Program-made: the position numbers and the translations under genes
Notes under the pieces: model-generated
The model's database searches: none
Told to the model about the DNA's origin: nothing
What the model saw: the letters and a program-made list of their open reading frames with translations, nothing else
In this document: positions 2,978-28,986 of the stretch, piece after piece
Layout: each line of letters opens with the position of its first letter
Numbering within the stretch: position 1 is the stretch's first letter
Source of the DNA: Magnetococcales bacterium
Lineage (GTDB): Bacteria; Pseudomonadota; Magnetococcia; Magnetococcales; DC0425bin3
Direction: 5' to 3'
Length of the DNA stretch: 64,000 nucleotides
Assembly (NCBI GenBank): GCA_015228935.1
Contig: JADGCO010000001.1
Location: forward strand, 148,103-212,102

Positions 2978-5900
2978 TCAGCCTTTACTGGCTGGAGATT
3001 CACCCTCTTTTTCCTTCTTGCGCAACAAGGTTTTCATCAGCCCGGCAGCCCGACCGGTCCCTGCCGGGATCAGCCGACCGACGATGACATTCTCTTTCAG
3101 GCCATTCAACGTATCTGCACGCCCGGAGATGGACGCCTCGGTCAGGACCCGGGTCGTCTCCTGGAACGATGCCGCCGAAATGAAGGACGGCGTGGAGAGG
3201 GACGCCTTGGTGATTCCCAGCAAAAGCGGGAAGGAGGTCGCCTGCCGCCCGGAACGAAGGGCAGCCTTGGCATTTTCCCGGTCAAACTCGCTCTTCTCGA
3301 CCGACTCGCCGGCAACGAAGGTCGTGTCGCCAGGATCCAGGATGGCCACCTTCTGCAACATTTGCCGCACAATCACTTCAATGTGCTTGTCGTTGATCCG
3401 CACGCCCTGGAGCCGGTAGACTTCCTGGATTTCGTTCACCATGAAGCGGCACAAATCCTCCAGGCCCAGAATTTTGAGAATGTCCTGCGGCACCGGAGAG
3501 CCTTCCATGAGGGGTTCACCGCGCCGGACATAGTCACCCTCATTGACGGCGAGCTGTTTCCCCTTGGGAAGCATATACTCCCGGGGTTCACCCACTTCCG
3601 CCGTCACGATGACCCGTCGCTTGCCTTTCAAATCCTTGCCGAAGGAGACCACCCCTTCGTTTTCGGAAATGATGGCATACTCCTTGGGCTTGCGGGCCTC
3701 GAACAGCTCCACCACCCGGGGCAGACCGCCTGTGATGTCGCGGGTTTTGGACGTTTGCCGGGGAACTTTGGCAATGATATCCCCGGCCAGGACATGATCC
3801 CCTTCCATGACCATGATCACGGCCCCGACGGGAAGGAAGTAACGCACTTCCGCGCCGGATGGCATGACCAGGGTTTCGCCGCTGTCAGGGTGTTTCAGGG
3901 TCAGCCGGGGTCGCATGTCGGTCTTGCGTCCCTGACTCTTCCAGTCGGTCACTTCCCGGGAACTCAGGCCTGTGGTTTCGTCGATGGTTTCGCGCAGGGT
4001 GTGGTTTTCAACCAGATCACCGTATTTGATGATACCTTCCATTTCCGTAATGATCGGCGAGGAGAAGGGATCCCATTCGGCAAAAGTCTGCCCCTTCTCC
4101 ACCCGCTGGCCATCGCCCACCATCAGGCGGCAACCATAGGGAACCCTGTGGCGTTCCCGTTCGCGTCCCAGTTCCAGCTCGGGAATCACGTCACCGCTGT
4201 TTTCGGACCCTTCCACGGCACGCACTTCGTGAATGGAAACCTCGCCGTTCCGGGACAGGACCACATAACGTCCATTGCGATCCTGCACCGTGGTGAGGTT
4301 ATGGAAACGGGCGATGCCACCATGCAGGGAATCGAGGGAGGATTGTTCCACTTTCCGGGATGCCGTTCCACCGATATGGAAGGTCCGCATGGTCAACTGG
4401 GTACCCGGTTCACCGATGCTCTGTGCGGCAATTACGCCGACCGCCTCGCCAATCGTCACCTTGGTCCCGCGGGCCAGATCGCGCCCATAACACTTGACGC
4501 ACACCCCGCGCTCGGTCGCACAGGTCAGGGGAGAGCGGATCTTGATGCTCTCCACATTGGAATTTTCAATCCGCTCCACATCGTCTTCGTCAAGAATTTT
4601 GCCGCACTCGGCAATTCTTTCATCCGTGATGGGATCCACGATATCTTCCAGGGGGGTACGTCCCAGCACGCGATCCGCCAGGGATTCGACCACATCATTC
4701 CCTTCCAGAAGGGCCGTGGCGGTCAGCCCTTCGGACGTGCCGCAATCCTCTTCCCGGACGATACAATCCTGGGCCACGTCCACCAGACGCCGGGTCAGGT
4801 ATCCGGAGTTGGCCGTCTTCAGGGCCGTATCCGCCAATCCTTTCCGGGCACCATGGGTGGAGATGAAGTATTGCAACACTGTCAGCCCTTCACGAAAGTT
4901 GGCCGTGATGGGGGCTTCGATGATTTCACCGGATGGTTTGGCCATCAAGCCGCGCATGCCCGCCAACTGGCGAATCTGCGCCGCCGAACCTCTGGCCCCG
5001 GAGTTGGCCATCATGAAAATGGAGTTGAACGAAAGCTGTTCACGGCCCACGTCGATAGTCTCCGACGAAATTCCCTTCATCATTTCGTCGGCCACCCGTT
5101 CCGTGCAGTGCGACCAGATGTCGATCACCTTGTTGTATTTTTCACCCTCGGTGATGAGACCTTCAATATACTGGCGCTCGATCTCCTTGACTTTTTCCTG
5201 TGAATCTTCCACGAGCGCCCGTTTGCTCTTCGGGATCACCATGTCATCCTTGCCGAACGAAATGCCGGCCCGGGCCGCAAAACCGAAACCAACGGTCATG
5301 ATCCGGTCGGCAAAAATGACGGTCTCCTTGGTACCGCAGTTGCGGTAGACCACGTCGATGAGCTTGGCCACCTCTTTTTTGGTGAGCAGACGGTTGACCA
5401 GGTCGAAGGGAATCTGATCGGGCAGAATTTCGGTCAACAGGATGCGTCCGACCGTGGTCTTCTGTCGCACGCCGCGATACCGACACATGATGGAGGCATG
5501 CAGTCCGATTGCGCTGGAATCATAGGCTTGGCGGACCTCCAGGGGCGAGGAGAAGATCATCCCCTCTCCCAGCACGTTCAGGCGCTCCGAGGTCATGTAG
5601 TACAGGCCCAGAATGATATCCTGGGTCGGCACGATGATGGGCTTGCCGTTGGCGGGCGAGAGAATGTTGTTGGTGGACATCATCAACACCCGCGCCTCAA
5701 TCTGGGCCTCGATGGAGAGCGGCACATGGACGGCCATCTGGTCGCCGTCAAAGTCGGCATTGAACGCCGTACAGACCAGGGGATGCAACTGGATGGCCTT
5801 GCCTTCGATCAACTTCGGCTCGAAGGCCTGGATACCCAGACGATGCAGGGTGGGTGCCCGGTTGAGCATGACCGGGTGTTCCCGGATCACCTCCTCCAGG

Positions 5901-14652: not shown

Positions 14653-14728
14653 TGGCAGGACAGGAGGGACTCGAACCCCCAACCGCCGGTTTTGGAGACC
14701 GATGCTCTACCACTTGAGCTACTGTCCT
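14653..14728 (-). tRNA. tRNA-Trp (anticodon CCA)
   Basis: The reverse complement folds as a cloverleaf. Acceptor AGGACAG/CTGTCCT, anticodon loop CTCCAAA, T-arm GGTTCGAGTCC, encoded 3' CCA. Confidence 0.92.
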
Positions 14729-14775
14729 TCGCAAACAATCACCATTCCCCGGTTGCGCCTCTGGAACAGGACAGC

Positions 14776-14931
14776 CTACTTGATTTTTCCTTCCTTGTGA
14801 AGGGTATGCTTGCGGCAAAACGGACAATATTTGCGCAGAGCCAATTTTTCCGGTTTGGTGCGCTTGTTTTTGTCCGTTGTATAGTTGCGCCGTTTGCACT
14901 CTTCGCAACTCAGGCTGATCAGATCACGCAT
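14776..14931 (-). CDS. rpmG: 50S ribosomal protein L33
   Basis: 51-codon ORF, below the track size cutoff. Sequence is [51 protein letters not shown], with the CxxC...CxxC zinc ribbon typical of L33. Located between tuf and tRNA-Trp/secE. Confidence 0.9.
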
Positions 14932-15003
14932 ACAGATTCCTCCGGGACCATCTGGAACTATTTTGTCCCGTTACCCTCGTGTGGGGTTGCAAAGACGAAA
15001 CCA

Positions 15004-15028
15004 GCGGGATCCTGTTCAAAGATCCCGC
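15004..15028 (-). terminator. Possible intrinsic terminator after tuf
   Basis: Hairpin GCGGGATC-(9 nt)-GATCCCGC lies 28 nt after the tuf stop. On the minus strand it is followed by TGGTTTCGTCTTTGC, which is moderately T-rich. Confidence 0.35.
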
Positions 15029-15055
15029 CGGTTCGGCCTGACTTGGATGGCAGCT

Positions 15056-16246
15056 TTATTCGATGACCGTGGAGACGACTCCGGCACCCACCGTCCGGCC
15101 ACCTTCACGGATGGCGAAACGGAGGCCTTGCTCCATGGCGATGGGAGAGATCAGCTCCACTTCCAGCGCAATATTGTCACCGGGCATCACCATTTCGACG
15201 CCATCGGGCAGTTTCAGAATGCCGGTCACGTCGGTGGTCCGGAAGTAGAACTGGGGCCGATAGTTGGAGAAGAACGGGGTGTGGCGTCCGCCTTCTTCCT
15301 TGGTCAGGATGTAGCACTCGGCCTTGAATTTTTTGTGGGGGGTGATGGAACCGGGTTTGGCGAGGACCTGGCCGCGTTCCACTTCATCGCGTTTGGTGCC
15401 CCGCAGCAGAACGCCGATGTTGTCGCCGGCCTGACCTTGATCCAGGAGTTTCCGGAACATTTCGACGCCGGTGCAGATGGTCGAGGTTGTGGGCTGGAAG
15501 CCGACGATCTCGACGGTTTCACCCACTTTGACGATACCCCGCTCCACGCGCCCGGTCACCACGGTTCCGCGCCCGGAGATGGTGAACACGTCTTCGATGG
15601 GCATCAGGAAGGCCCCATCGAGGGGGCGTTCCGGAAGGGGAATATAGGCATCGACGGCATCCATCAACTTTTCGATGGCTCCCTTGCCCATCTCTCCGGC
15701 ATCCCCTTCCATGGCTTTCAGGGCGGAGCCTACCACGATGGGAATGTCATCGCCGGGGAATTCGTACTGGGAGAGGAGTTCCCGGACTTCCAGCTCGACG
15801 AGTTCCAGCAGTTCCGGATCGTCCACCTGGTCGGCCTTGTTCATGAACACCACCAGGGCCGGCACGCCGACCTGGCGGGCCAGCAGAATGTGTTCCCGGG
15901 TTTGCGGCATGGGACCGTCGGCAGCGGAGACGACGAGGATGGCACCATCCATCTGGGCGGCACCTGTGATCATGTTCTTGATGTAGTCGGCATGGCCAGG
16001 GCAGTCCACGTGTGCATAGTGGCGTTTGACCGTCTGGTATTCCACGTGGGCCGTCGAGATGGTGATGCCGCGTTCACGCTCTTCCGGAGCGGCATCGATC
16101 TTGTCGTAAGCCATGAACTCGGCCATGCCTTTTTCCGCCAGGACCTTGGTGATGGCCGCCGTCAGCGTCGTCTTGCCATGGTCCACGTGGCCGATGGTAC
16201 CGATGTTCACATGCGGCTTTGTTCGCTCGAATTTCGCTTTGGACAT
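15056..16246 (-). CDS. tuf: Elongation factor Tu
   Basis: 396-aa [43 protein letters not shown]...[26 protein letters not shown]. Confidence 0.99.
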
Positions 16247-16317
16247 GCCAATTTCTCCCAGCTTGAAGTAAGGCGGTGATATGTTCTACAGGTGTCCGGT
16301 CCCGCGAAGCTTGATAC

Positions 16318-16392
<75 letters not shown>

Positions 16393-16437
16393 ACACCTGA
16401 ATGCCGTGGGGTCCTGCCAACCAGGGTCTTTCCAAGC

Positions 16438-16511
16438 TGGAGCGGGTGGGGGGAATCGAACCCCCGTGATCAGCTTGGAAGGCTGACGTTCTACCATTGA
16501 ACTACACCCGC
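16438..16511 (-). tRNA. tRNA-Gly (anticodon TCC)
   Basis: Reverse complement is GCGGGTGTAGTTCAATGGTAGAACGTCAGCCTTCCAAGCTGATCACGGGGGTTCGATTCCCCCCACCCGCTCCA. Acceptor GCGGGTG/CACCCGC, anticodon loop CTTCCAA. Confidence 0.93.
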
Positions 16512-16570
16512 CTGTTCAGTTCCCCTTCACCCTCTGCTGATTTCAACGGCTCGCACGATCAGACAGACGG

Positions 16571-16655
<85 letters not shown>

Positions 16656-16696: not shown

Positions 16697-17266
16697 TCAA
16701 GGGGATATCTCATTTTTTTCTGCAACACCTTCCAGGATGGTGACAATCCCCCAGGCCTCTTCCTGGATGGGGTTGCGGTAGGAGTGAACAACATTACCCC
16801 GGAACCGGGCACTGTCTCCGGCACTCAAGGTAACCACCTCTCCCGCCACATCCAGAACAACTTCGCCGCGCAGAACATAGAGGTACTCCTCGCTCCCCGG
16901 CGCATGAGGTTTACCATCATATACCGACTCGGGACGCAAGTGAAAGGCCTGTTGAAAAAAATGGAATACATTGGGGGGGGAGACATTCACGGCCTGGTAG
17001 ACCTCATCACCGGAAATCACCCGCCGCATCTGGTCCTGGCGATACACCTGGATCCGCTTGCAGTCCGACTCCACCAGATCATCAATCGATGTCCCCAGCG
17101 CCGCAGCAATCCGGAATACCACCGCCAGGGATGGGTTGCCGTCATCCCGCTCGGCGGTTGCCAATGTTGCCCGCGGAATTCCCGCCAAATCCGCCAAATG
17201 CTGCTGAGTCCATTTCCGCAGACTCCGAATGGCACGGATCCGCGTCCCTACCAGATTGGTCACCAT
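16697..17266 (-). CDS. XRE-family HTH transcriptional regulator with C-terminal cupin domain
   Basis: Track ORF 16697-17335 trimmed to ATG 17266 (MVTNLVGTRIRAIRSLRKWTQQHLADLAGIPRATLATAERDDGNPSLAVVFRIAAALG = HTH_XRE). The C-terminal half GSEEYLYVLRGEVVLDVAGEVVTLSAGDSARFRGNVVHSYRN is cupin-like. GGAGG lies 8-10 nt upstream of this ATG. Confidence 0.8.
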   Translation of the reverse strand: MVTNLVGTRIRAIRSLRKWTQQHLADLAGIPRATLATAERDDGNPSLAVVFRIAAALGTSIDDLVESDCKRIQVYRQDQMRRVISGDEVYQAVNVSPPNVFHFFQQAFHLRPESVYDGKPHAPGSEEYLYVLRGEVVLDVAGEVVTLSAGDSARFRGNVVHSYRNPIQEEAWGIVTILEGVAEKNEISP

Positions 17267-17400
17267 GGGCCACCTCCTCCCGGTCTGTTCATCACCCGGT
17301 TCCCTTTCTCCACCTGATTGGTCACCATGGGCCACATCCTCCCGGTCTGTTCATCACCCGGTTCCCTTTACTTCTCCAGATTGGTCACCATGGACCTCAC
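17255..17400. repeat. Tandem direct repeat, 62/63-nt unit x about 2.3
   Basis: Copies start at 17255, 17317 and 17380. Each begins ATTGGTCACCATGG, the reverse complement of CCATGGTGACCAAT that holds the regulator start codon. Copies 1 and 2 are near-identical over 62 nt. Copy 3 diverges after about 14 nt. Confidence 0.9.
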
Positions 17401-17744
17401 CATATCAGCCTGTTCCAGGCGCATCATTGACAAAATTACGACATTTTTGATGGTATACCATTTTTTTTTCTTGACGTACAGTTGGCAAATGCACCACAAT
17501 CCTTTCTCATTGGTGGTGCCCAGGTCACGATCACCGTCGCAACCCCGGCACGAGCGTGACACATCACCAGAGTCAAGATTCGATTTCATTGCGATGACTG
17601 AGTATTTTTTGCGTCACTTCGACACATCAACATGAATAGAATGCCTGACGCATCGACGATACGTTCAGGAGAGAACCGGTCCAACTGCCAGGGACCACCT
17701 GCTGACAACACCTCTAAAATCAAGACTGTCAAGGAGAGAATCCC

Positions 17745-18341
17745 ATGAGTGTATTGGTTACCAAACCGGCCCCGGATTTCAAGGCCACCGCTGTCATGCC
17801 CGACAACAGTTTCCAGGAAATTTCCCTGTCCGATTACAAGGGGCAATATGTCGTTCTGTACTTTTACCCCCTGGATTTCACCTTTGTCTGCCCCTCGGAA
17901 ATCATCGCCTTCGATCATCGGCTGAACGAATTCAAACAACGCAAGGTCCAGGTGCTGGGGGTCTCCATCGACTCCCACTTTGTCCACCTGGCCTGGAAAA
18001 ACACCGAGGTCAACAAAGGCGGCATTGGCAATGTGCAATATCCATTGGTGGCCGACATCAGCAAGGCCATTACCCGCGCCTATGATCTGGAAACCGGTCC
18101 CGGCATCTCCCTGCGCGGCTCCTTCCTGATCGACAAGGCCGGTGTGGTCCGGCATCAGGTGGTCAACGACCTCCCCCTGGGCCGTAACATCGACGAAATG
18201 CTGCGCATGGTCGATGCCCTGCAATTTTTCGAGGAACATGGCGAGGTCTGCCCGGCTGGCTGGCAGAAAGGTAAACCCGGCATGAAAGGCTCCACCGCCG
18301 GCGTGGCCGAATATCTGGCCCAGCATGCCAGCAAGCTTTGA
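17745..18341 (+). CDS. ahpC: Typical 2-Cys peroxiredoxin (AhpC/Tsa family)
   Basis: 198-aa ORF with the peroxidatic [10 protein letters not shown] and the resolving EVCPAGW motifs. Confidence 0.93.
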
Positions 18342-19183: not shown

Positions 19184-22100
19184 TCAGCTCTCTTTGGCAG
19201 CAATACGGAAACCGACATTGCCGATTCTTTTTGTCGCAGGGTCACAGCCACGAAAGTCAGACCGCAGGCAATCAGATGGATCAACCCAGGAGCCTCCCCG
19301 CAAAACCATTTTATCTCCCTCGTGGACAATTGGATCGAGCAGTAATCCGTATACATTTCTTTCATGATAATAAAAACTCCGACTCCATTCCCAAACATTT
19401 CCTACCAAATCACTGTGACCGTATGGTCCCTCTCCCAATGGATAAAGGCCCACCGGCGTTGGTACATTGATATTCCCACCAAAATTAGCATGTTCTGGAG
19501 TTGGTTTAGCATCTCCCCAAGGATAAATTCCCCCATCACGTCGTGTCGCCGCTATTTCCCAAACCTTCTCATCGGGTAAACAGATATTTTTTTCTGTCAA
19601 ATCACTTAACCACCGGCAGTAGGCCATGGCTTCAAACCAGGTAACATCAATGACCGGGCGATTGGGATACTGAACATGATGTTCCCACGCACCTGGTTCT
19701 TCCCACATATATTCCAGGCGCAGCTTCCAGCCCTTTTTGTCCCACCATTTTTCTTGCCGATACCCCTCTCCCTGTTCCATAAAAAGCTGATACTCAGCCA
19801 CGGTCACCGGATATTTTCCCAATTTCCATCCTGTCCCGGGAACCGGCAGCAGATTGTCTTGCTTCAGACGGGGGTCTCCTCCTTGCCCTAAAGCTTTTGC
19901 TGCTTCCATACGAGCTTCGATGGAAACTTTTTTTGCTCCTTCCAAGGTAAAAATTTCCATGGAACGCTCAAGCACCTTGCGATAAACGTCTTCAATCTCC
20001 ACCGGTGTTTTGTACTCGTAGGCAGTCATGGGTTGCAGAAGCCGGCCCATGATTCCGGCCATGCGGGCATTTTCTGCCAACGTGCTGTCTTTGCTCCGAG
20101 ACAACAACACCCTTTGTAACAACTGATCCACTCGTCTTGCCCCCCCCTCATCGAAAAGGGCACCGGAAAACAATTCGACCGTTTCCCGCCATTGGGGATT
20201 GTCCAGGCGGTCTTTGATGATCGGCCAATAGTCATCTGGAGAGTTTTCACCATCTCCCATCCATGCCAGGGCCTGGGCTGCCAGGTATTCCTGGAAGGTC
20301 AAATGCCAGAATTTCAGCTTTTGCGGTCCCACCTCTTCGACAATACCGCTCCCCAGGCACTCAAACCCCAACCATGACCGACCAAATTGTAAACGCTCTG
20401 ACTTGCTTGTTAATTGCGGAAAATGCCTCTGCACCCGAGGTTCCACTACCTCGGCTCCTTCCTGGAAATCAAACACCGCCTGTTTGCCACCCTTGCCACC
20501 CTTCATCATGGCCAGAGCCAGATCGGAAAATGCTTCCAGGGCAAAACGATCCTGGTAACCTGCATTCTTGCGCATGATTGTTCGGGCAGCAATCAACCAG
20601 CGCATGACGGCCTGGTAAACCCGTGCCCGGCCTTCCGGCAACTTTCCTTCGTTCCAATGAACCACGCACAAACAGGTCAACATGACCGGATTGGCTGCCA
20701 AGCGTCGAATGGCTGGTTTTTCCAGAATGGTCTGGAGCAGGATTGTGTGATGATCCTGGGCCACTGATTGTTCTGGTCTGCCAGCAGACCGTTCATGCAA
20801 TGCTGCCGACCAGCGAGTAATGAATTCACGGATCTCCGTCTGACTGAAAGGTTCAATCACAGCATGCGAAAATCCCAATCCCCGCATCTGCTTCACCCCA
20901 AAGGGACGACTGGAGACAACCATGGGACACTCTTTCCATTGTTGAACAGCATCCTGAACAATGGCGATCACCCGTTTTCGAATCTCTTCATCGGCCACTT
21001 CATCCAGGCCATCCAGGAGCAGAAAAACTTTTCCTTCTTCCAGCAGGGTTGTCCAATGGTGACGCCAATCCGCATCCTTTTTGGCAGTGAACGTCAGATC
21101 CAACAAATCCAACAACCGGTCGCATCCATGCCTTAATTGACTGACCGTGTCATCCTTGGTCAGGAGTACGGCCAGTTCCGAGAGTCTAAGAAACAGGGGA
21201 TAACGCGGTTCCTCTTTCTCGTCCATTCCCAAATATCGACCCCGCCAACTCCCTCCCGCCGGATGGGAAATTCCAAGCAAATCCTTGGCCAGCATGGCGG
21301 CCACCAGACGCAAAAAAGTGGTCTTGCCGGCACCTGGTTGTCCTTCAATGAGCAGTCGCCTGGATTGCGGCAGTAGTGACGCCAGGGAAGCCGAGTCTCC
21401 CTGCTCCAGGAATTGACCTTCCCTCACTTCACCCCGACTGCGCAACGGGGTGTACAATTGCTCAACATTGTACCATCCCGCATCCTGACTCCGCCCAGCC
21501 CCGGAACCAATGCCACGAATTTCAATCCTGCTCGTGCGCTCCAGCAAGGATTGCAGCCACGGTCGAAGATCCACAGTCGCTCTTGTTGCGCCATTATTGC
21601 TTTCCGACACTTTTTCAGGGGAACGAATCCGAATCCCTTCTGCCTGCTCCGGGCCAAAGGAGGTATCGTGCATAAAAAAGGCATTCCCCCCTCCGGTGAC
21701 AACCCTCTGCAAGGGCCAGATGCGTATTTGACCATCGGGATGCACCTCGCCCCAGGTATACCCCATGCTGCGCGACTCTCTGGCTGTGCCAAAATGTTCC
21801 AATCCGAACAACGAACTGGCCTGAAGGTAAAAACGGGGTTTGCCGCCAGATTCTGCAATACTCCAGGTGTGGTGGGCGTGCCGATGACCACACAGGAGCG
21901 CCAGGAAGCGTTCCGGGGTATAGACGGATTCCTTGAAACGACTCTGGGCATCCCTGGAGAGCCAATCCAGTGGATGGTGCATCATCAACAAGGCAGGATG
22001 TTCTTCCAGAATCCGCAAGGATGTGGAGCGACCGGTCGTTCCAGCCAACAGCAAGGCCTGCAACTGCTCGGCAGCCACTTCCAAACGCCCATGGGAATCC

Positions 22101-23629
22101 CCCTCCAGACACGCCATCCAGGCCGAATTCAGCCCGACAACGACCAGCGGCATACGACCCGGCAGGACAATCTTGACCAGCAAGTCACCAGGAAAATGCG
22201 AACGCCAATAAACACACCCCTTCCGTTGTGCCAATCCGGGCAGGATGGAACGTTCCAACCAGTTTTGATAATTGACAAAAAGCGGATTAAAAAACGCGGC
22301 ATCGCGTTTTTCCCAAAGGGTATCAAGGAGTTGCGCAATATAGGAATCATCCCGTCCCTTGCCAAAATTGTTCAAGATGGCGTAGGGAAAAGCGGCCAAG
22401 CCCTGGGGACGAACCAGGTCATGGTTGCCGGGAACTGGAATTACCAGTGGATCCTGGTCCATCCGGCCACTCCCCCGCAACCAACCCAAAAGCTCTTTCA
22501 GAAAGCCGTCCACAAACTGAAACTCTTCCGGTTGCCCACGCCAGGTCAGGTCACCCGTCAGGAGGATCAAATCCGGTACACCCGCAATCCTGACTCTCTC
22601 CAACAGGCTGGACTTGAATTCCTGATGAACCTGCCACCACAAGGAACGCTCGGGTGCCCCCAGGTGCAAATCCGAAAGGTGCAACCAGCGCAATGGCGCA
22701 TGACCGGCAGAACTCTCCACCCGGAGAACCGTTTTGCTGCTGATTTTCAGCAAGGTTTTGAACAAGGTTTGATAGTCGGCAAACAGGGCGGTGTCATCCA
22801 TCCCTTTGCTACTGACCAAAAGGGATTCATCCACCTCCAACGCGGGCAGGGAGTGAAGAACATGCACCTGTTGCACATTCAGGGTGGCCTCCAACATGTC
22901 GGCTGGTTCATTGAAAAATTCCCGCATATTTTCAGTCCATCTATCCTCCTCTAAAATGGCCTTTTGCGGAATACGAGTCACCACGGGAATCATGGCAATG
23001 GGTAGTGTATCAACAGGACGTTCTACCATCTTGATCCCACGCATGACCGCCCGTGTGCCCAGCAAATTTTCATTATTGTGGGCAAACAGGCACACCACCG
23101 TGTCAGCCAAAATGGAAATGGCCACACCTCCCACTTCGGTAATCCCGGTGCGGGCATCAATCAACAAATAATCCGGTTGAAATTGTTCGGCAATTTTTTC
23201 TTTCAGTTCGAGGAAGAAACCGATACCCCAGGGATCTTCCCCATAAAACATGTCGTGCCAACTCAACATGGCCAAATGTTTCCAATAATCTGTTTTTTCA
23301 GAATTTCCGGCGGCCAGCATGTGGATGCGACCGGCATGGGTTTCTGTCCCAATCGTTGCATCGGCCAGGCGAGGTTCCAGGACCAGGGCTGGAATTTTTT
23401 CCCACAGAAGTTCCTGATTGATTAAAAACCCATGCAGCAGGTCCACCACGCCCCCGGTCAATGGCTGCTGAAGCTGATTTTTAAATTTGTAGTACAATCC
23501 TGGGGCTTCCAGGTCAAAGTCCATGATAAAGACTTTTTTTCCTTCCCGGGCCAGGTATCGGGCCAGATTGGCAAGGGCCATACTGCGCCCCACTCCCCCT
23601 TTATATGAATAAAAAACGATGGTGTGCAT
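19184..23629 (-). CDS. Giant multidomain STAND protein: ParA/MinD-like ATPase, calcineurin-like metallophosphoesterase, NACHT NTPase, helical arm, FGE-sulfatase (SUMF1-like) domain
   Basis: 1481 aa. Residues 1-290: YSYKGGVGRSMALANLA deviant Walker A and LLIDARTG. Residues 313-640: the phosphoesterase motifs HLSDLHLG, LTGDLTWRG, PGNHD, MMHHP and CGHRHAHH. Residues 755-1000: LLIEGQPGAGKTTFLRL and VFLLLDGLDEV (NACHT Walker A and B). Residues 1262-1481: RPVIDVTWFEAMAYCRWL, GNVWEWS, LRGGSW and VGFRIA (FGE-sulfatase). Confidence 0.85.
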   Translation of the reverse strand: MHTIVFYSYKGGVGRSMALANLARYLAREGKKVFIMDFDLEAPGLYYKFKNQLQQPLTGGVVDLLHGFLINQELLWEKIPALVLEPRLADATIGTETHAGRIHMLAAGNSEKTDYWKHLAMLSWHDMFYGEDPWGIGFFLELKEKIAEQFQPDYLLIDARTGITEVGGVAISILADTVVCLFAHNNENLLGTRAVMRGIKMVERPVDTLPIAMIPVVTRIPQKAILEEDRWTENMREFFNEPADMLEATLNVQQVHVLHSLPALEVDESLLVSSKGMDDTALFADYQTLFKTLLKISSKTVLRVESSAGHAPLRWLHLSDLHLGAPERSLWWQVHQEFKSSLLERVRIAGVPDLILLTGDLTWRGQPEEFQFVDGFLKELLGWLRGSGRMDQDPLVIPVPGNHDLVRPQGLAAFPYAILNNFGKGRDDSYIAQLLDTLWEKRDAAFFNPLFVNYQNWLERSILPGLAQRKGCVYWRSHFPGDLLVKIVLPGRMPLVVVGLNSAWMACLEGDSHGRLEVAAEQLQALLLAGTTGRSTSLRILEEHPALLMMHHPLDWLSRDAQSRFKESVYTPERFLALLCGHRHAHHTWSIAESGGKPRFYLQASSLFGLEHFGTARESRSMGYTWGEVHPDGQIRIWPLQRVVTGGGNAFFMHDTSFGPEQAEGIRIRSPEKVSESNNGATRATVDLRPWLQSLLERTSRIEIRGIGSGAGRSQDAGWYNVEQLYTPLRSRGEVREGQFLEQGDSASLASLLPQSRRLLIEGQPGAGKTTFLRLVAAMLAKDLLGISHPAGGSWRGRYLGMDEKEEPRYPLFLRLSELAVLLTKDDTVSQLRHGCDRLLDLLDLTFTAKKDADWRHHWTTLLEEGKVFLLLDGLDEVADEEIRKRVIAIVQDAVQQWKECPMVVSSRPFGVKQMRGLGFSHAVIEPFSQTEIREFITRWSAALHERSAGRPEQSVAQDHHTILLQTILEKPAIRRLAANPVMLTCLCVVHWNEGKLPEGRARVYQAVMRWLIAARTIMRKNAGYQDRFALEAFSDLALAMMKGGKGGKQAVFDFQEGAEVVEPRVQRHFPQLTSKSERLQFGRSWLGFECLGSGIVEEVGPQKLKFWHLTFQEYLAAQALAWMGDGENSPDDYWPIIKDRLDNPQWRETVELFSGALFDEGGARRVDQLLQRVLLSRSKDSTLAENARMAGIMGRLLQPMTAYEYKTPVEIEDVYRKVLERSMEIFTLEGAKKVSIEARMEAAKALGQGGDPRLKQDNLLPVPGTGWKLGKYPVTVAEYQLFMEQGEGYRQEKWWDKKGWKLRLEYMWEEPGAWEHHVQYPNRPVIDVTWFEAMAYCRWLSDLTEKNICLPDEKVWEIAATRRDGGIYPWGDAKPTPEHANFGGNINVPTPVGLYPLGEGPYGHSDLVGNVWEWSRSFYYHERNVYGLLLDPIVHEGDKMVLRGGSWVDPSDCLRSDFRGCDPATKRIGNVGFRIAAKES

Positions 23630-23646
23630 GGTTCACCTGGACACTT

Positions 23647-24240
23647 TCAAGCGGGAGAAAACACCTGACCCTTGCCGGCTTTGGAATGAAGAACATCTTT
23701 TTCCTGAGATGTCCTATGCTTCATTCCCGGCAACACATTCTGCCGTTCATTTTTTTGCTTCTGGAGTTCTTCATTGCATAATGTTAAAATTTTTAACGTT
23801 TCCAGATACATTTGACGATTTTTTCCCATCGCCGGAGAGTGCAGCATAGCGATCATGATCGCCTGGGCTTGAAGAAAACGTTTCTTGGGCAACAATTCAT
23901 TTTGAATGCGCTGAAGAAAATCCTCAATCTTGTCGGCAGGCGCACGTTGCAAAAGCCGGATGGATGCATCTTGATTTTGTTCGGGTTGGTCCTGCAAAAA
24001 CTTTTTTGCCGCCTCCACGAAAGCGTTTCGCAAATAGACGATCAAAGCTTGCCAATCCGGGAAGGGAGGCATGGCAGACACTGGTTGAAAATTGCCGTTG
24101 GCAAGCAATTGATTCATGTCTGAGTCACTGATCCAGGGGCATCGTTCCTTACTGTATGGTGGTCGCAGGAGCCGTAATTTTTGTTCCATACGCACCACGG
24201 CCCACCCATCTTCCACTGAACATGCCAATAATTCAATCAT
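23647..24240 (-). CDS. Hypothetical protein (197 aa), operon partner of the NACHT protein
   Basis: Complete ORF. Its ATG overlaps the upstream stop (ATGA at 24237-24240), and it ends 17 nt before the NACHT gene start. I recognise no motif. The central and C-terminal part looks helical and is rich in charged residues and Gln. Confidence 0.6.
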   Translation of the reverse strand: MIELLACSVEDGWAVVRMEQKLRLLRPPYSKERCPWISDSDMNQLLANGNFQPVSAMPPFPDWQALIVYLRNAFVEAAKKFLQDQPEQNQDASIRLLQRAPADKIEDFLQRIQNELLPKKRFLQAQAIMIAMLHSPAMGKNRQMYLETLKILTLCNEELQKQKNERQNVLPGMKHRTSQEKDVLHSKAGKGQVFSPA

Positions 24241-25079
24241 AGTGTTTTGCCCCAGGGAATATTATGAATGTCCAACTGCTCAACAACAGTAGTGAACAGT
24301 GCAACTTCCATTCTTCTGCTTTTATCACCCATCGTATTCGCGTTTATGTCATCAAACGCTGAGTTTAAAAGACTTTCAAGCAGATTTTTCTCAATGCGAA
24401 CCTCTTCAATTTGCTCAGGAGTCAGGGAACCAACAAATATCACCTCTATATATTTCGTTTCTTTACAAACCAGTTCCGGCCAATCTTTTTGATCAATTTT
24501 TGCAATTTCTTCGTGATGTTTAAGGGCAGCAAGAGTGTGTCGCTGTTCCATGCTGGCCAGTTCCTGTTTAAATTTATCAAATATCAGAGTAGACTTCGCA
24601 TCCATATACCCAACCAAACTGTCTTCGGCAAGATAGATTGACAATATTTTTTCCCAATATTTTTCCTGCACCACGACGCAGTAATCTCCGTATTTTCTGG
24701 TTCCCTCACCTCCGATATTCAATAAACCATAATAAAATTTTTCCCCATCGACAAAAATTGACTCAAAATTCTTTCTTGGAAGATACCACTCACGCAGCTT
24801 TTCCTCCATCAATCTTTCCGGAGTTCTTCTGCCACGGATTGCGATCTGGTTTGCCCAATCATGAATATTTTTATACTTCTTGCTGAACAAAAAATCATTC
24901 AGCACATAGAGATGCATATTGATGGAAACCCGGGCTGTATTCTGGACATGATTCCGGAAACGACTCAAGAGTGTCGCATCGACTCCGGGAGTGGTCAGAA
25001 GGGTCTGATAACGACTTTCCAGGTCTGGGTCATTTTGTTGCGCCAAGGCAAAAATATCGAGTTTTGAGGAGAGGGACAC
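24237..25079 (-). CDS. Hypothetical protein (280 aa), first gene of the NACHT operon
   Basis: Complete ORF with a GTG start at 25079. This is the most AT-rich part of the window, so a 280-codon open frame is unlikely to be chance. No recognisable domain. Confidence 0.6.
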   Translation of the reverse strand: MSLSSKLDIFALAQQNDPDLESRYQTLLTTPGVDATLLSRFRNHVQNTARVSINMHLYVLNDFLFSKKYKNIHDWANQIAIRGRRTPERLMEEKLREWYLPRKNFESIFVDGEKFYYGLLNIGGEGTRKYGDYCVVVQEKYWEKILSIYLAEDSLVGYMDAKSTLIFDKFKQELASMEQRHTLAALKHHEEIAKIDQKDWPELVCKETKYIEVIFVGSLTPEQIEEVRIEKNLLESLLNSAFDDINANTMGDKSRRMEVALFTTVVEQLDIHNIPWGKTL

Positions 25080-25566
25080 CTGCTTGCATCCCTGATTGGA
25101 GTCACGATTCCGAAGGGATGAAATCCATGGTCAGCCTGTCTGAAATTTTGATTTCACTCATGCGGACGGCGGTTATTTTATCATGAATTGATCGTCCGTC
25201 AAGATTTTAATTTTCGTTTGTGTCCTATTTCCAGAATCCAATCGCGACGGAAGCATATTTGAATGCCAGCCCGCTGATTAAACTTTATGCAGTGTCCTGG
25301 TGTGGGGAAGTTGGGTGGAATCTCCAAAAGGCAGACAGCACTCGCTCCAATTAAATGGCATATTACTTGCTTGAACCATGGCATCGGGTCTGATCGGGTT
25401 GAATGTTTGCTGGGTCTCATCTAAGATAGTGAAGAGAGTTCATTTTACGAACTGTGTAGCCACCAGTGTGGAGAGTGAGTGAATATTATGATCAGGGGGG
25501 AATATCCATCAGCCCTGGCTGGCTTGGTCAGGATATTTCAGATCATGAATAGACACTCAAACCTAG

Positions 25567-27228
25567 ATGAATAGATACGCAAAAATCTGGATATGGTGCG
25601 GTTTTGGTCTGCTGGCGATGGCCTTACTGGTTGCTCTGGCCATGGTCAGCAACAATTTTCCGGCGTTCTCTTATCTTCACTACCTGGACATCATCGGACT
25701 GACAGGGGGGGCCATTTTCCTTCTGATTGGCTTGTTTCTCCAGGAAAAGAACACTCTGTCCCACCAGGAAATCAACAGGTTTTGTGATGATCTGACTGCG
25801 GCCTATATGCGTCTGGAGGCGCGATTGCAGGCAACCCGGTCACTCACCCTGAGCGTTCGGGATGCCATCGTCGCCTGCGATGAGCGTGGCATGATTAATT
25901 TTTGGAATCAAGGAGCGACCGCCCTGTTTCACCACGCCGAGCCGGAGGCCATGGGACGCTCCGTGGAAATCCTGATGCCGGAACGGTCTCGGGAAACGTA
26001 CCGGCAAAAATTCAAGCAAGTCAAAACCAACCCAAATTCCATGACCGGGGGGAAGATTCTCGATCTGACGGCTTTGCGCAAAGATGGCCAGGAAATTGAC
26101 ATTGAAATGTCCCTCGCCGGCTGGCGCACCGAGGGAGAACAATTTTTTGTCGCCGTCATCCGGGATATATCCCAACGCAAACATCACGAAGCCTCTTCCG
26201 AGCGCATCCAGCAATCCCGGGTGGCCATCAGCGAACTTCTGCGCATCGCCCTCGAACCCATTACCTTGAAAGAACAACTGCAACAAGCCATGAACGTCAT
26301 TCTCTCCGTTCCATGGCTGACCATCGAGTCCAAGGGATCCATTTTTCTGTTTGATGAAGAGAGCCAGGAACTGGAGTTGATCGTCGAACACAATCTTTCA
26401 AAACCATTGCTGACCGCCTGCGCCCGTTTGCCTCTGGGATATTGTCTTTGCGGTCGGGCCGCCCAGAGCAGGGAAATCGTATACTCCAATGATCTGGACC
26501 ATCGGCACGATGTCACCTTTGACGGGATTCGACCCCATGGTCATTACTGTGTTCCAATCCTTTCCCAGAATCGTCTGTTGGGTGTGGTCAACATGTACCT
26601 GACCCATAATCACATCCAGGATCCGGAAGAGACCGACTTTCTCTGGGCCATTGCCAATACCTTGGCCGGTGTCATTGAGCGCAAGAAAGCCGAAAACCTT
26701 CTGTCACACCTGGCCCATCACGATACCTTGACCGGCCTACCAAATCGCAAGCTCTTTCTCGAACGGCTTGATCATGACATGGCCCGTGCCAAACGCATGG
26801 AATCGCTCCTGGCAGTCATGTTTCTGGATCTGGATAAGTTCAAGGAAGTGAACGACACCATGGGACACGAAGTGGGCGATCAACTTCTCATCGAAGTGGC
26901 CAGGCGTCTGAAAAGCTGCCTGCGCGAATCCGACACCATTGCCCGTCTGGGCGGCGACGAATTTACCGTCATTCTGACTGTCCTTCCCAAACCGGAGGGA
27001 GCTGTCATCGTCGCCAAAAAAATCATTGCTGCCCTTGAAAAACCTTTTTATTTTCCAGATAAAGAGTGTCATATTGGCTCCAGCATCGGCGTCAGCTACA
27101 ACGATTGGCCCGATGATACCCCGGAATCTCTGCTCCATAAGGCCGATACCGCCATGTATGCCGTCAAGCGGGAGGGAAGAAACAATTTCAAGATTTTCGA
27201 TACCAGCATGGAAATTGCGGACAGATGA
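25567..27228 (+). CDS. Membrane-anchored PAS-GAF-GGDEF diguanylate cyclase
   Basis: 553 aa with two N-terminal TM helices and a PAS-like segment (RDAIVACDERGMINFWNQGATALF). A GAF-like segment follows, then a GGDEF domain with an intact RLGGDEF and the upstream HDTLTGLPNRK. Confidence 0.88.
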   Translation: MNRYAKIWIWCGFGLLAMALLVALAMVSNNFPAFSYLHYLDIIGLTGGAIFLLIGLFLQEKNTLSHQEINRFCDDLTAAYMRLEARLQATRSLTLSVRDAIVACDERGMINFWNQGATALFHHAEPEAMGRSVEILMPERSRETYRQKFKQVKTNPNSMTGGKILDLTALRKDGQEIDIEMSLAGWRTEGEQFFVAVIRDISQRKHHEASSERIQQSRVAISELLRIALEPITLKEQLQQAMNVILSVPWLTIESKGSIFLFDEESQELELIVEHNLSKPLLTACARLPLGYCLCGRAAQSREIVYSNDLDHRHDVTFDGIRPHGHYCVPILSQNRLLGVVNMYLTHNHIQDPEETDFLWAIANTLAGVIERKKAENLLSHLAHHDTLTGLPNRKLFLERLDHDMARAKRMESLLAVMFLDLDKFKEVNDTMGHEVGDQLLIEVARRLKSCLRESDTIARLGGDEFTVILTVLPKPEGAVIVAKKIIAALEKPFYFPDKECHIGSSIGVSYNDWPDDTPESLLHKADTAMYAVKREGRNNFKIFDTSMEIADR

Positions 27229-27285
27229 GACTGTAAACACGGTAAAAGGTTCAATACGTAAAAGTCAATTTTCCGGGCATAACGC

Positions 27286-28986
27286 ATGAATCAATCCCAT
27301 ACCCCTCTTGCCATTGCCATCCAGCTTTTCGAGCATACCGTGGAAGGAATGCTGGTCATGGACGCGAGTGGCAAGGTTGTGTCCGTGAATTCCGGCTATA
27401 CAAACATTACCGGAGAGTCACGTGAGGCCTTGTTGGGCAATCCGGCCATTTTGTTTCGGGACCCGGACAAACTGGATCGTTCACCCCAATCCATCCTGGA
27501 TGAGGCCCGGGAAAGGGGACACTGGCATGGCGTCATCTGGAATCGGCGTGGCAATGGCGAGTCTTATCAGGAGTCCATGGTTGTCACGGCCATCCACGAT
27601 TCCAAAGGTGAAACAACACATTTTGTTGCCGTCTGCCTGGACATGTCCCTGACCGGACTGAACGCTGCCGAGTTGCGTCTGCGCTCCAACCATGACCATC
27701 TTACCGACCTGCCCAACAGGCTGCTCTTCACCGACCGTCTGGAACAAATCCTGGTTCATGCACAACGTTCCCGGGAAAATGTGGTTTTGTTGTTTTTTGC
27801 CCTGGACTCTTTCAAAAAAATCAATGAAAGCCTGGGGCACCAGACAGGGGATCTGGTTCTGAAACAGGTGGCGGGTCGCCTGCGCCAGATCATTCGCAGG
27901 GAAGACACCCTGGGACGTTTGAGTGGAGATGAATTTGCCATCATTTTTCGCAATGCCCGCCACACGGAGAGTGCCATCACCATTGCCCAGAAGGTGCAGG
28001 CATCGCTGGCCGAACCCCTCATGGTGTCAAACCATGAGCTTGCGGTAACCGCCAGTGTGGGATTGGCCGTTTTTCCCATGGATGGCGAAGATGCCGAGAC
28101 GTTGATTCGTCATGCCAATCTGGCGTTGGCCCGGGCCAAACAGGCTGGCAGAAATACCTTCATGTTTTTCACCTCCTCCATGGCAGCCCAGGCCACCAAG
28201 AGAATGATCCTGGAAAACAGTCTGCGCAAAGCCTTGGATAACGGTGAATTTATTGTTTATTATCAACCCAAGGTCCATGTCGCTACCGGTCTGGTGACCG
28301 GCATGGAGGCCTTGATTCGCTGGAACCAACCCGGCATGGGGATGGTGCCACCGGGGGATTTTATCGCCATAGCCGAAGAAAGTGGGCTGATCGTGCCCAT
28401 GGGACAATGGGTTCTGGAAACATCCTGCCGCCAGAGCAAATCCTGGATCGATGCCGGGTTGGGCCCGCTCCGGGTGGCAATCAACCTTTCCGCTCGTCAG
28501 TTTCAGGTTGGAAAACTGAACAATACGATCAAAAAAGTCCTGGATACGACAGGTCTTTCCCCAACTGACCTGGAACTCGAAATTACCGAAAGCCTCATGA
28601 TGGCCGACATCAAGGAATCCATCATCACCTTGCGGGAATTGAGTGACATGGGACTGAGTATTGCCGTGGACGATTTTGGTACCGGCTACTCTTCCCTTTC
28701 CTATCTGCGCCAGTTTCCGATCAACACCATCAAGATCGACCGCTCCTTCGTCTCCACCCTGACCTCGGAATCTGGCGATACACCGATTGTCCGCGCCATC
28801 CTCTCCATGGCCCAGAGCCTCAATCTGGCCAGTGTCGCCGAAGGGGTGGAAACTGTGGAACAGCTCCAGATCCTGACCGAACTGGGTTGTGATGAATACC
28901 AAGGATATTATTTCAGCCGACCATTGCCACCGGAAGAGTTCGCCGCACTGGTGACCCGCCTGCGTCAGGTTTCCGAAAAAGATTGA
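27286..28986 (+). CDS. PAS-GGDEF-EAL c-di-GMP signalling protein
   Basis: 566 aa. It has a PAS domain, a GGDEF domain with a variant SGDEF site (RLSGDEFAI), and an EAL domain (EALIRW, DDFGTGYSSLSYL, KIDRSF). Confidence 0.9.
   Translation: MNQSHTPLAIAIQLFEHTVEGMLVMDASGKVVSVNSGYTNITGESREALLGNPAILFRDPDKLDRSPQSILDEARERGHWHGVIWNRRGNGESYQESMVVTAIHDSKGETTHFVAVCLDMSLTGLNAAELRLRSNHDHLTDLPNRLLFTDRLEQILVHAQRSRENVVLLFFALDSFKKINESLGHQTGDLVLKQVAGRLRQIIRREDTLGRLSGDEFAIIFRNARHTESAITIAQKVQASLAEPLMVSNHELAVTASVGLAVFPMDGEDAETLIRHANLALARAKQAGRNTFMFFTSSMAAQATKRMILENSLRKALDNGEFIVYYQPKVHVATGLVTGMEALIRWNQPGMGMVPPGDFIAIAEESGLIVPMGQWVLETSCRQSKSWIDAGLGPLRVAINLSARQFQVGKLNNTIKKVLDTTGLSPTDLELEITESLMMADIKESIITLRELSDMGLSIAVDDFGTGYSSLSYLRQFPINTIKIDRSFVSTLTSESGDTPIVRAILSMAQSLNLASVAEGVETVEQLQILTELGCDEYQGYYFSRPLPPEEFAALVTRLRQVSEKD

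Follow-up and report, generated by a model that had tools for sequence, protein, structure and literature searches.

Within a stretch of 64,000 nucleotides from a Magnetococcales bacterium (contig JADGCO010000001.1 of assembly GCA_015228935.1, forward-strand positions 148,103 to 212,102; this whole stretch is referred to below as 'the window', and positions are counted from its first letter), a single uninterrupted open reading frame (ORF) of 1481 residues with an ATG start, termed gene C (19184..23629, minus strand), encodes a protein that looks like a bacterial immune receptor of the NOD-like receptor (NLR) type with a variant ParA-like ATPase attached to it. The gene is a mosaic, the C-terminal ~1170 residues forming a complete NLR-like receptor that is fused behind an ATPase domain bearing the motif KGGVGR, and it is preceded by two co-directional genes, A and B, the first of which is predicted to encode an ADP-ribosyltransferase (ART) fold. 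On balance, and judging from sequence, we read the locus as a conflict system, an ART-B-ATPase cassette whose ATPase has acquired an NLR-like receptor by fusion; the role of the three-gene locus would then probably be anti-phage.

The product of gene C is 100% identical to a GenBank protein from a metagenome-assembled genome of Magnetococcus sp. DMHC-1, where it is named for its C-terminal domain only ('SUMF1/EgtB/PvdO family nonheme iron enzyme'). A preliminary description of this DNA, made from the letters alone, had assigned to the ORF, as one polypeptide, a ParA/MinD-like domain, a metallophosphoesterase, a NACHT module and an FGE-sulfatase domain; this four-part map was confirmed, with all domains scoring above their Pfam gathering (GA) thresholds and the proposed domain limits off by no more than a few residues. 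The predicted cis effector, a calcineurin-like metallophosphoesterase (residues 313-640; 21710..22693, minus strand), matched Pfam Metallophos from residue 314 with 36.1 bits (GA 21.5), and all five motifs that define such enzymes (DxH, GD, GNH[DE], H and GHxH) were located, as D320-x-H322, G359-D360, G401-N-H-D404, H551/H552 and G581-H-R-H584. The completeness of this motif set, likewise proposed at the outset, was upheld by an alignment of 12 homologues reaching down to 22% identity, in which H322, G359, D360, G401-D404, H551, H582 and H584 were invariant and D320 was conserved in at least 90%. When the profile of the phosphoesterase family was compared with the PDB, the closest matches were the Mre11/SbcD nucleases (3.2e-8) and GpdQ (1.3e-7), followed by the Rv0805/Icc phosphodiesterases of cyclic nucleotide monophosphates (cNMPs; ~1e-5) and SMPDL3B (0.03), and the region itself displayed weak matches to the NCBIfam models DS8_antiphage and DS9_1 and to the PADLOC model PDC-S60.

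The NACHT NTPase module (residues 750-1010; 20600..21382, minus strand) matched both Pfam NACHT (36.1 bits, GA 26.7) and NPHP3_N (35.9 bits, GA 24.8) across residues 755-941, and carries a Walker A motif, GQPGAGKT, at residues 763-770 together with the sequence DGLDE at residues 873-877, which corresponds to the NACHT-specific D[GAS]hDE Walker-B signature in the definition of Kibby et al. It is followed by a helical arm (residues 1011-1260; 19850..20599, minus strand), lying between the NACHT module and the sensor, for which no Pfam match was obtained and which is 47-66% identical to the arms of stand-alone Magnetococcales homologues. The protein ends in an FGE-sulfatase (FGS) domain with the C-type-lectin fold, the predicted ligand sensor (residues 1262-1481; 19187..19846, minus strand), whose match to PF03781 (132.7 bits, GA 23.3, E 2.3e-38, residues 1268-1477) is the strongest single Pfam match of the whole protein. 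That match, with which the GenBank name agrees, might be taken to indicate a housekeeping non-haem iron enzyme of the SUMF1/EgtB/PvdO family, engaged in sulfatase maturation or thiol-histidine biosynthesis. Such a role is scarcely credible, and the functional name is effectively refuted, because the equivalog cutoffs are missed by a wide margin (EgtB 101 against 360 bits, SenA 77.5 against 420, OvoA 62 against 400 and PvdO 32 against 500); furthermore, the domain forms the C-terminal tail of a NACHT protein, a position described as that of a sensor, no sulfatase or ergothioneine genes were found nearby in the window, and the distribution of the family is patchy, with paralogues and shuffled N-termini. 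FGS domains have been described as 'antigen-receptor-type' sensors of bacterial NACHT proteins, among which calcineurin-like phosphoesterases represent one effector class (Kibby et al.; Kaur et al. 2020/2021; PMC13581612). From what is known of that family, the receptor part of C would comprise the FGS domain as ligand sensor, the NACHT module as oligomerisation switch and the metallophosphoesterase as effector. Diversification of the FGS domain by a diversity-generating retroelement (DGR) was considered and dropped, since the window holds no template/variable repeat: no repeat of at least 40 nt involving 19184-19846 was found in the 64 kb, a trans-acting DGR elsewhere being possible.

The combination of metallophosphoesterase, NACHT and FGS is an autonomous single-gene unit. 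Among the best 120 homologues of the gene C product, to which all homologue counts for that product refer, proteins of ~1130-1200 residues that consist of Metallophos, NACHT and FGE only make up the largest group of close relatives (P0003-P0024, which share 39-58% identity across 79% of the query), and the three stand-alone genes of this kind that were inspected are single genes amid housekeeping genes, with no A or B adjoining. A domain-by-domain comparison placed the receptor block of C equally near to stand-alone Magnetococcales genes (58, 65, 61 and 53% identity to P0003 for Metallophos, NACHT, arm and FGE, respectively) and to two other fused copies (P0002 and L008, about 48-63%). Other N-termini are found ahead of the same block: in P0008 (1367 residues) a SEFIR/TIR region occupies the position held by KGGVGR in C, and in P0009 (2591 residues) the block lies behind an N-terminal extension of ~1450 residues with further STAND-type matches.

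The first 300 residues of C (22730..23629, minus strand) form a variant SIMIBI (ParA/MinD-like) ATPase domain, recognised from an NCBIfam match, conserved motifs and PDB sequence matches. Residues 1-199 belong to NCBIfam NF047398, 'KGGVGR-motif variant AAA ATPase', by score (153.5 bits, cutoff 90) as well as by the motif itself, which is present as KGGVGRS at residues 10-16; residues 1-153 match Pfam CbiA (33.7 bits, GA 25.4), AAA_31 (29.4 bits, GA 27) and ParA (28.4 bits, GA 27.1), with weak matches to Fer4_NifH over the same N-terminal stretch, and the sequence matches in the PDB are to Soj, MinD and Mrp. Both the assignment of the N-terminus to the ParA/MinD class and the variant Walker A motif noted in the preliminary description were therefore borne out, by hidden Markov models and PDB matches in the first case and by the family in the second. 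The P-loop lysine is replaced by Arg15, the signature Lys10 is kept, and the deviant Walker A motif KGGxxGK[ST] with both of its lysines is accordingly absent; an arginine occupies the P-loop position in all 82 homologues that carry the domain as KGG[VTA]GR[ST], and in every one of them the motif lies within the first 40 residues. Across 92 domain sequences the motifs FYSYKGGxGR[ST], DxDLEAPGL and LIDxRTGxT recur family-wide, and the signature lysine, the switch-I DxD and the Walker-B aspartate are strongly conserved, which argues that the lysine-to-arginine SIMIBI domain is a constrained variant and not an obvious case of decay. By sequence, the KGGVGR domain is thus of the SIMIBI/ParA class in fold, yet a distinct, named and unstudied family (NF047398); a search with 'KGGVGR' as a word returned no relevant paper in the literature covered, which is incomplete.

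ATPases of the SIMIBI class often attach to DNA or membrane in the form of ATP dimers. A domain with the ParA/MinD-class fold by hidden Markov models, and with PDB sequence matches to Soj and MinD, might by the same token tether or position the receptor on the nucleoid or the membrane, or might act as a second, independent nucleotide gate; nucleotide gating and tethering to a surface or the nucleoid had been suggested in the preliminary description. We regard both roles as rather improbable, since canonical ParA or MinD identity is far from reached (minD_bact 24 bits against 212.9; ParA_partition 21.3 against 180), no ParB- or MinE-like partner is encoded alongside (neither A nor B matches a model for either protein), and the fusion partners and neighbours of the family are effectors and sensors rather than segregation or division genes. 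In addition, the ATPase domain has no C-terminal membrane-targeting helix, because the phosphoesterase follows directly.

The placement of a ParA-type ATPase upstream of a STAND switch had been presented as unusual in the preliminary description, which did not stand: 82 of the 120 homologues carry KGGxGR at their N-terminus, 45 of those 82 also bear a canonical Walker A motif downstream, and fusions of MinD/ParA-like domains to AP-ATPases had already been noted by Kaur et al. 2020 (PMC7159879). Among these homologues the pairing of ParA-like and STAND domains is not out of the ordinary, and only the full four-part combination is rare; it was seen in C, P0002 and L008, all from Magnetococcales, and in P0053, which at 22-37% identity appears to be independent. 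The STAND architectures among the homologues include KGGVGR-NACHT-FGE, KGGVGR-NACHT, KGGVGR-DUF4062-NACHT-FGE and versions with TIR, SIR2 or Mrr, while the non-STAND ones include TPRs, RAMP and a Cas3-type helicase, and a caspase-like peptidase and Cmr1 are also among the fusion partners. TIR, SIR2, DUF4062, Mrr, the Cas3-type helicase and RAMP are typical conflict-system domains.

The partner genes of these proteins vary as well. In three loci a TIR-domain gene lies directly upstream of a KGGVGR-STAND gene, overlapping or abutting it, and replaces A and B (L003, the locus of P0053, at 131-1360; L028 at 4544-5011; L029 at 4393-5001), TIR proteins being, like ARTs, a class of NAD+-consuming enzymes; next to these genes L028 additionally has bAvd, a DGR accessory gene, and a second DUF4062-NACHT-FGE gene. 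In a fourth (L026:5001-13081), the KGGVGR domain is fused via TPRs to a Cmr1-like RAMP domain within a gene that heads a cmr2-cmr6 type III-B CRISPR-Cas operon, and the three small genes upstream of it are unrelated to A or B. A Cas6 gene, a Cas2 gene and a reverse transcriptase fusion are found nearby in that locus, and the link between KGGVGR and a CRISPR effector was unexpected. The idea that A and B are universal partners of all KGGVGR proteins was abandoned on account of these four loci. From the varied fusions, together with the TIR and CRISPR partner sets, the KGGVGR domain behaves as a portable, strictly N-terminal module that is accompanied by a separately encoded partner.

In the window that partner is represented by genes A and B, which lie just outside the coordinates first flagged and were missed by the preliminary description. 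Gene A (24237..25079, minus strand; 280 residues, GTG start) is the first gene of the cassette and gene B (23647..24240, minus strand; 197 residues) the second; the start codon of B overlaps the stop codon of A (ATGA), and B ends 17 nt before the start codon of C. No model in Pfam, NCBIfam or PADLOC matched A, and a search of a word-indexed protein database with A alone returned only A itself. An exhaustive representative search placed A at the head of a family that comprises 431 clusters at 50% identity, the members being uniformly ~275 residues long. The structure predicted by AlphaFold2 (AF2) from a 53-sequence alignment has a mean predicted local distance difference test score (pLDDT) of 95 and a predicted template modelling score (pTM) of 0.91, and its best match in the PDB by Foldseek is SopF (E 1.1e-5, probability 1.00, TM-score 0.48), with further matches to OspC3, CopC, DarT, Tpt1, CteC and pertussis toxin; as expected of an ART fold, each of the 18 best-ranked PDB entries is an ART or Tpt1. 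Among viral models (BFVD), the best matches were a ParB-fused, polyvalent-type phage protein and a DUF3626 protein, DUF3626 being the Pfam domain of SopF (PMC6682159). Conserved residues of the family include N54, R102, Y117-G118, G126, G131, C134, S154, K187, E212 and R228. In the predicted model, the candidate catalytic positions are Y117-G118, which lie on a strand, Y149/S154, which follow the next strands, and E212, which would open a beta strand as the catalytic glutamate of ARTs does. On this structural evidence, A is predicted to possess an ADP-ribosyltransferase fold; profile and per-member searches of PDB sequences and Pfam gave nothing meaningful. No description of this ART-like family was found in the literature searched, which is incomplete in coverage, and no model in Pfam, NCBIfam or PADLOC represents it.

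Gene B also lacks any match in Pfam, NCBIfam or PADLOC. Its homologues are 22-39% identical, with D11-G12-W13-A14 and P27-P28 invariant in 13 sequences, and the AF2 model built from those 13 sequences (pLDDT 80) consists of a three-strand beta N-terminus followed by helices; this model had no PDB match by Foldseek at E <= 0.001, leaving B with no detectable fold relative. When a chimeric profile that joined B to the core of A was used as query, 12 homologues of B and no new homologue of A were recovered. The deposited version of B (P0280, HQL65_00845) comprises 183 residues, and the 14 residues upstream of it, MIELLACSVEDGWA, hold the conserved D11, G12, W13 and A14. Since these 14 residues bear the most conserved positions of the family, and the ATG that precedes the deposited protein overlaps the stop codon of A, the deposited start of B is probably 14 codons too short, as judged from the alignment.

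Orthologues of A were found upstream of KGGVGR genes in L001, L004, L006, L008-L025 and L027. Genes A and B stand beside all three KGGVGR-bearing copies from Magnetococcales, and beside KGGVGR genes in unrelated genomes, including P0002/L001, P0038/L004 (in which C is KGGVGR-NACHT-FGE) and P0046/L006 (in which C is KGGVGR-NACHT). A search baited with A, using a 12-sequence alignment as query, produced 18 further loci from Acidobacteriota, Planctomycetota, Myxococcota, Armatimonadota, Chromatiales and Magnetococcales, 16 of which extend past B (L016 and L023 end at or just after the cassette). B directly follows A in all 16, and a KGGxGR[ST] protein of 246-1451 residues directly follows B in 13; the other three (L011, L021 and L025) have odd gene calls, the next ORF in L025 displaying a CbiA match and TPRs. 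The tails of the C proteins in the A-baited loci are Metallophos-NACHT-FGE, Peptidase_C25-like, TPR, a stretch of ~300 residues without a Pfam match, or none at all, the stand-alone ATPase versions being 246-298 residues long; NACHT-FGE and NACHT-only tails are added by the loci found through C. One Peptidase_C25-like C gene is followed by a patatin-like gene. Large genes lie directly downstream of shorter C genes in L009 (12909-16091) and L020 (13146-15998), where they encode a patatin-like phospholipase of 1061 residues and an FGE-sulfatase protein of 951 residues, respectively, which suggests that a part of the effector or sensor kind can become detached and form a fourth gene. It is A and B, and not the NACHT module, that are the constant companions of the KGGVGR ATPase domain in these cassettes. 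L004 and L006 are 73% identical in A, 83% in B and 89% in the ATPase domain, yet have different C tails, and between pairs of cassettes the identities of A, B and the ATPase domain rise and fall together (r = 0.78-0.85). Related cassettes reside in unlike contexts, such as nosR/nosZ in P0002/L001 as against sodB/GGDEF in the window. Within the window, the GC content is ~0.57 in the flanks and falls to 0.46-0.51 at 22000-26000, an interval that extends from the 5' third of C through B and A and on across the intergenic region as far as a GGDEF gene; such a dip would fit horizontal acquisition. Features of this kind (a constant module with hypervariable tails, a patchy taxonomic distribution and a lowered GC content) typically mark a conflict system. 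No description of the A-B-KGGVGR cassette was found in the literature searched, nor of one under combinations of ParA/MinD, ART, NACHT and TIR, the coverage of that literature being incomplete. Membership of the PADLOC candidate system PDC-M28 was rejected, since it is matched by the ATPase domain alone and by neither A nor B.

ART toxins such as DarT are usually paired with a neutralising partner, as in DarTG. Genes A and B might by that precedent be an independent, toxin-antitoxin-like pair that is carried in the same operon as a catalytically dead KGGVGR scaffold, the latter providing the receptor with constitutive dimerisation or an additional surface for interactions and nothing more. This explanation accommodates the replacement of the P-loop lysine by arginine in 82 of 82 domain-bearing homologues, the prediction by Kaur et al. 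2020 (PMC7159879) that MinD/ParA-like domains of conflict systems are inactive, and the occurrence of Metallophos-NACHT-FGE as a stand-alone gene elsewhere. We nevertheless consider it unlikely: strong conservation of the signature lysine, the switch-I DxD and the Walker-B aspartate is unexpected for a dead scaffold, and the position of the KGGVGR gene directly after B in 13 of 16 A-anchored loci, together with the co-variation of the three components, points to a three-part functional unit rather than an independent pair.

In a conflict system of the kind proposed at the outset, the binding of a ligand to the FGS domain would license oligomerisation of the NACHT module on ATP, and oligomerisation would activate the phosphoesterase by proximity. 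Activation of N-terminal effectors by induced proximity has been proposed for the anti-phage protein DS-8 and shown for other bacterial STAND proteins. The same oligomerisation would also gather the N-terminal SIMIBI domains and allow them to form the nucleotide-dependent sandwich dimer typical of their class, the state of which might be passed through B to A, so that A would be released or activated as a second, NAD+-using effector. The ATPase domain would, under this mechanism, be an adaptor or switch through which a constant A-B pair is linked to variable sensors and effectors, and not a partition or positioning motor. The adaptor role would be analogous to that of the ARF GTPases that activate SopF and cholera toxin: SopF, to which A is structurally closest, is activated by the P-loop GTPase ARF1 (PMC10333799), which constitutes a precedent for a P-loop NTPase that switches on an ART of the fold predicted for A. 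We hold this specific mechanism to be possible, and doubtful. A broader proposal of about the same strength, built on that analogy, is that A-B-KGGVGR is a hitherto undescribed and widespread modular immune cassette, in which the variant ATPase would be a nucleotide-dependent adaptor that switches on a separate NAD+-using enzyme (the SopF-like ART A with B in one lineage, a TIR protein in another), while whole sensors or effectors would be added as C-terminal fusions (a complete NLR-like receptor in C, and TPRs, a caspase-like peptidase or the Cmr1 of type III CRISPR in other proteins).

A converse relationship between A and C can also be imagined. NifH, a member of the SIMIBI ATPases, carries an arginine that DraT modifies. 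By analogy, A might ADP-ribosylate the ATPase domain, possibly at the invariant P-loop arginine, and so hold the receptor off until infection perturbs NAD+ or A itself. The predicted ART fold of A, the invariant arginine where every other SIMIBI ATPase has lysine, the strict synteny of A, B and C, and the weak Fer4_NifH matches of the same N-terminal stretch would all suit such a scheme. It is purely analogical, however, and we judge it very unlikely: the TIR-associated KGGVGR genes (L003, L028 and L029) share the arginine without an ART partner, and SopF-like and diphtheria toxin-like ARTs (of the I/H-Y-E type) are not typically arginine-specific, SopF itself having the catalytic triad I-Y-E and a glutamine as its target (PMC10333799).

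Several considerations weigh against the interpretation of the locus as a receptor coupled to an ART through its ATPase. The lysine-to-arginine change in the P-loop may abolish ATP binding or hydrolysis, in which case there would be no nucleotide-dependent dimerisation, and MinD/ParA-like domains were predicted to be inactive by Kaur et al. (PMC7159879). The C proteins of L014, L015 and L017 are bare ATPases without a sensor, and therefore sensing cannot always reside in C. Contact of A or B with the ATPase domain is deduced from synteny only, and the ART assignment of A is derived from one AF2 model and Foldseek (TM-score 0.48), with no sequence-profile support from PDB sequences or Pfam. Finally, the window displays no defence-island context around the cassette, the neighbours being sodB, a helix-turn-helix (HTH)-cupin regulator and GGDEF/EAL genes, and PADLOC matches are at candidate level only for C (PDC-M28B, PDC-S60 and weak P-loop matches) and absent for A and B; no named PADLOC model, whether Avs or another system, was matched by C.

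The individual parts of the locus can be compared with systems that have been characterised. DS-8 (DefensePredictor system 8; NF053861) is a single-protein metallophosphatase-NACHT anti-phage system, in which the catalytic residues and the NACHT module are both required (PMC13092281). C resembles it in carrying an N-terminal calcineurin-like metallophosphatase directly upstream of NACHT in one polypeptide, and DS8 and DS9_1 are the best named NCBIfam matches of its phosphoesterase; the DS-8 model, however, gave 64.9 bits against a cutoff of 790, and C therefore shares the design of DS-8 and is not a member of that family. Beyond DS-8, C possesses an FGS sensor, a 300-residue N-terminal KGGVGR ATPase and two upstream partner genes, and its phosphoesterase profile is as near to Mre11/SbcD and GpdQ as to cNMP phosphodiesterases, whereas DS-8 was compared with SMPDL3A. 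The NLR-related bacterial NACHT (bNACHT) proteins with FGS domains share with C the order of effector, NACHT, helical region and FGS, as well as the D[GAS]hDE signature; C differs from them in the lack of a DGR template/variable repeat in the 64-kb window, in the extra SIMIBI ATPase ahead of the effector and in its three-gene operon.

For the ATPase domain, the score is well above the curated cutoff of NF047398 and the motif is identical, and that family is probably the same as the 'inactive MinD/ParA-like' domains of Kaur et al. 2020, to which it was likened by description. In both cases the domain is fused to STAND NTPases and TPRs (AP-ATPases and actinobacterial systems in the earlier work). 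The contexts differ: those of Kaur et al. 2020 (PMC7159879) were vWA-MoxR ternary systems, in which the MinD/ParA-like domains serve as effector domains, or FxSxx peptide-processing systems, and here they are an ART-like gene and gene B. With ParA/Soj and MinD the domain shares the SIMIBI fold, the deviant-Walker-A signature lysine, the switch-I aspartates and the Walker-B aspartate, and it departs from them in its P-loop arginine, its sub-equivalog scores, the absence of ParB or MinE, a context other than partition or division, and its fusion to an effector. As for A, the best fold matches of its model are SopF/DUF3626, OspC3 and DarT, and the activation of SopF by the P-loop NTPase ARF1 would parallel the proposed coupling of A to the ATPase; A has no detectable sequence similarity to SopF, OspC3 or DarT (TM-score ~0.45-0.57), and it is a cytoplasmic protein encoded in an operon, not a secreted effector.

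The surroundings of the cassette contain a small number of additional features. A match to a sigma-70-like promoter (25175..25202, minus strand; TTGACG, a 16-nt spacer and TAAAAT, with TG) lies ~95 nt upstream of gene A; it is a consensus match only, such matches being just as numerous in the region as expected by chance. The window showed neither an integrase nor direct repeats flanking the cassette, and the cassette is at least 2.5 kb from a tRNA-Tyr/Gly/Thr-tuf-tRNA-Trp cluster at 14653-16655. Divergently upstream of the cassette (25567-28986, plus strand) are two genes of cyclic di-GMP signalling, which encode PAS-GAF-GGDEF (553 residues) and PAS-GGDEF-EAL (566 residues) proteins, and for a functional link of these genes to the phosphoesterase the window provided no evidence. 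Three tandem copies of a ~62-nt unit, 72-87% identical and with the core CAGATTGGTCACCATGGGCCAC...CCCGGTCTGTTC, occupy 17233-17415, where they overlap the 5' end of the HTH-cupin ORF (16697-17335, minus strand) and continue a short way upstream of it, before an orphan ORF (17586-18326, minus strand); these repeats could be regulator-binding iterons or a small repeat element.

Taken by itself, the receptor part of C is an example of a validated metallophosphatase-NACHT anti-phage design and adds little, and the fusion of ParA-like and STAND domains has been noted before in general terms. What is new is that the named but unstudied family NF047398 is the constant third gene of an A-B cassette, that the first gene of this cassette is predicted to represent a confidently folded and previously unrecognised ADP-ribosyltransferase-like family, and that this ATPase domain also occurs beside TIR genes and, in a type III-B CRISPR locus, as a fusion with Cmr1. 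The natural variants with and without the KGGVGR module, together with the three-gene cassette, are concrete targets. If the ATPase truly couples diverse sensors to NAD+-using effectors, prokaryotic immunity would have a new adaptor principle, one that plays a part like that of Death/CARD or EAD domains and is built on a nucleotide-dependent dimeriser, and the universal replacement of the P-loop lysine in this family would be explained.

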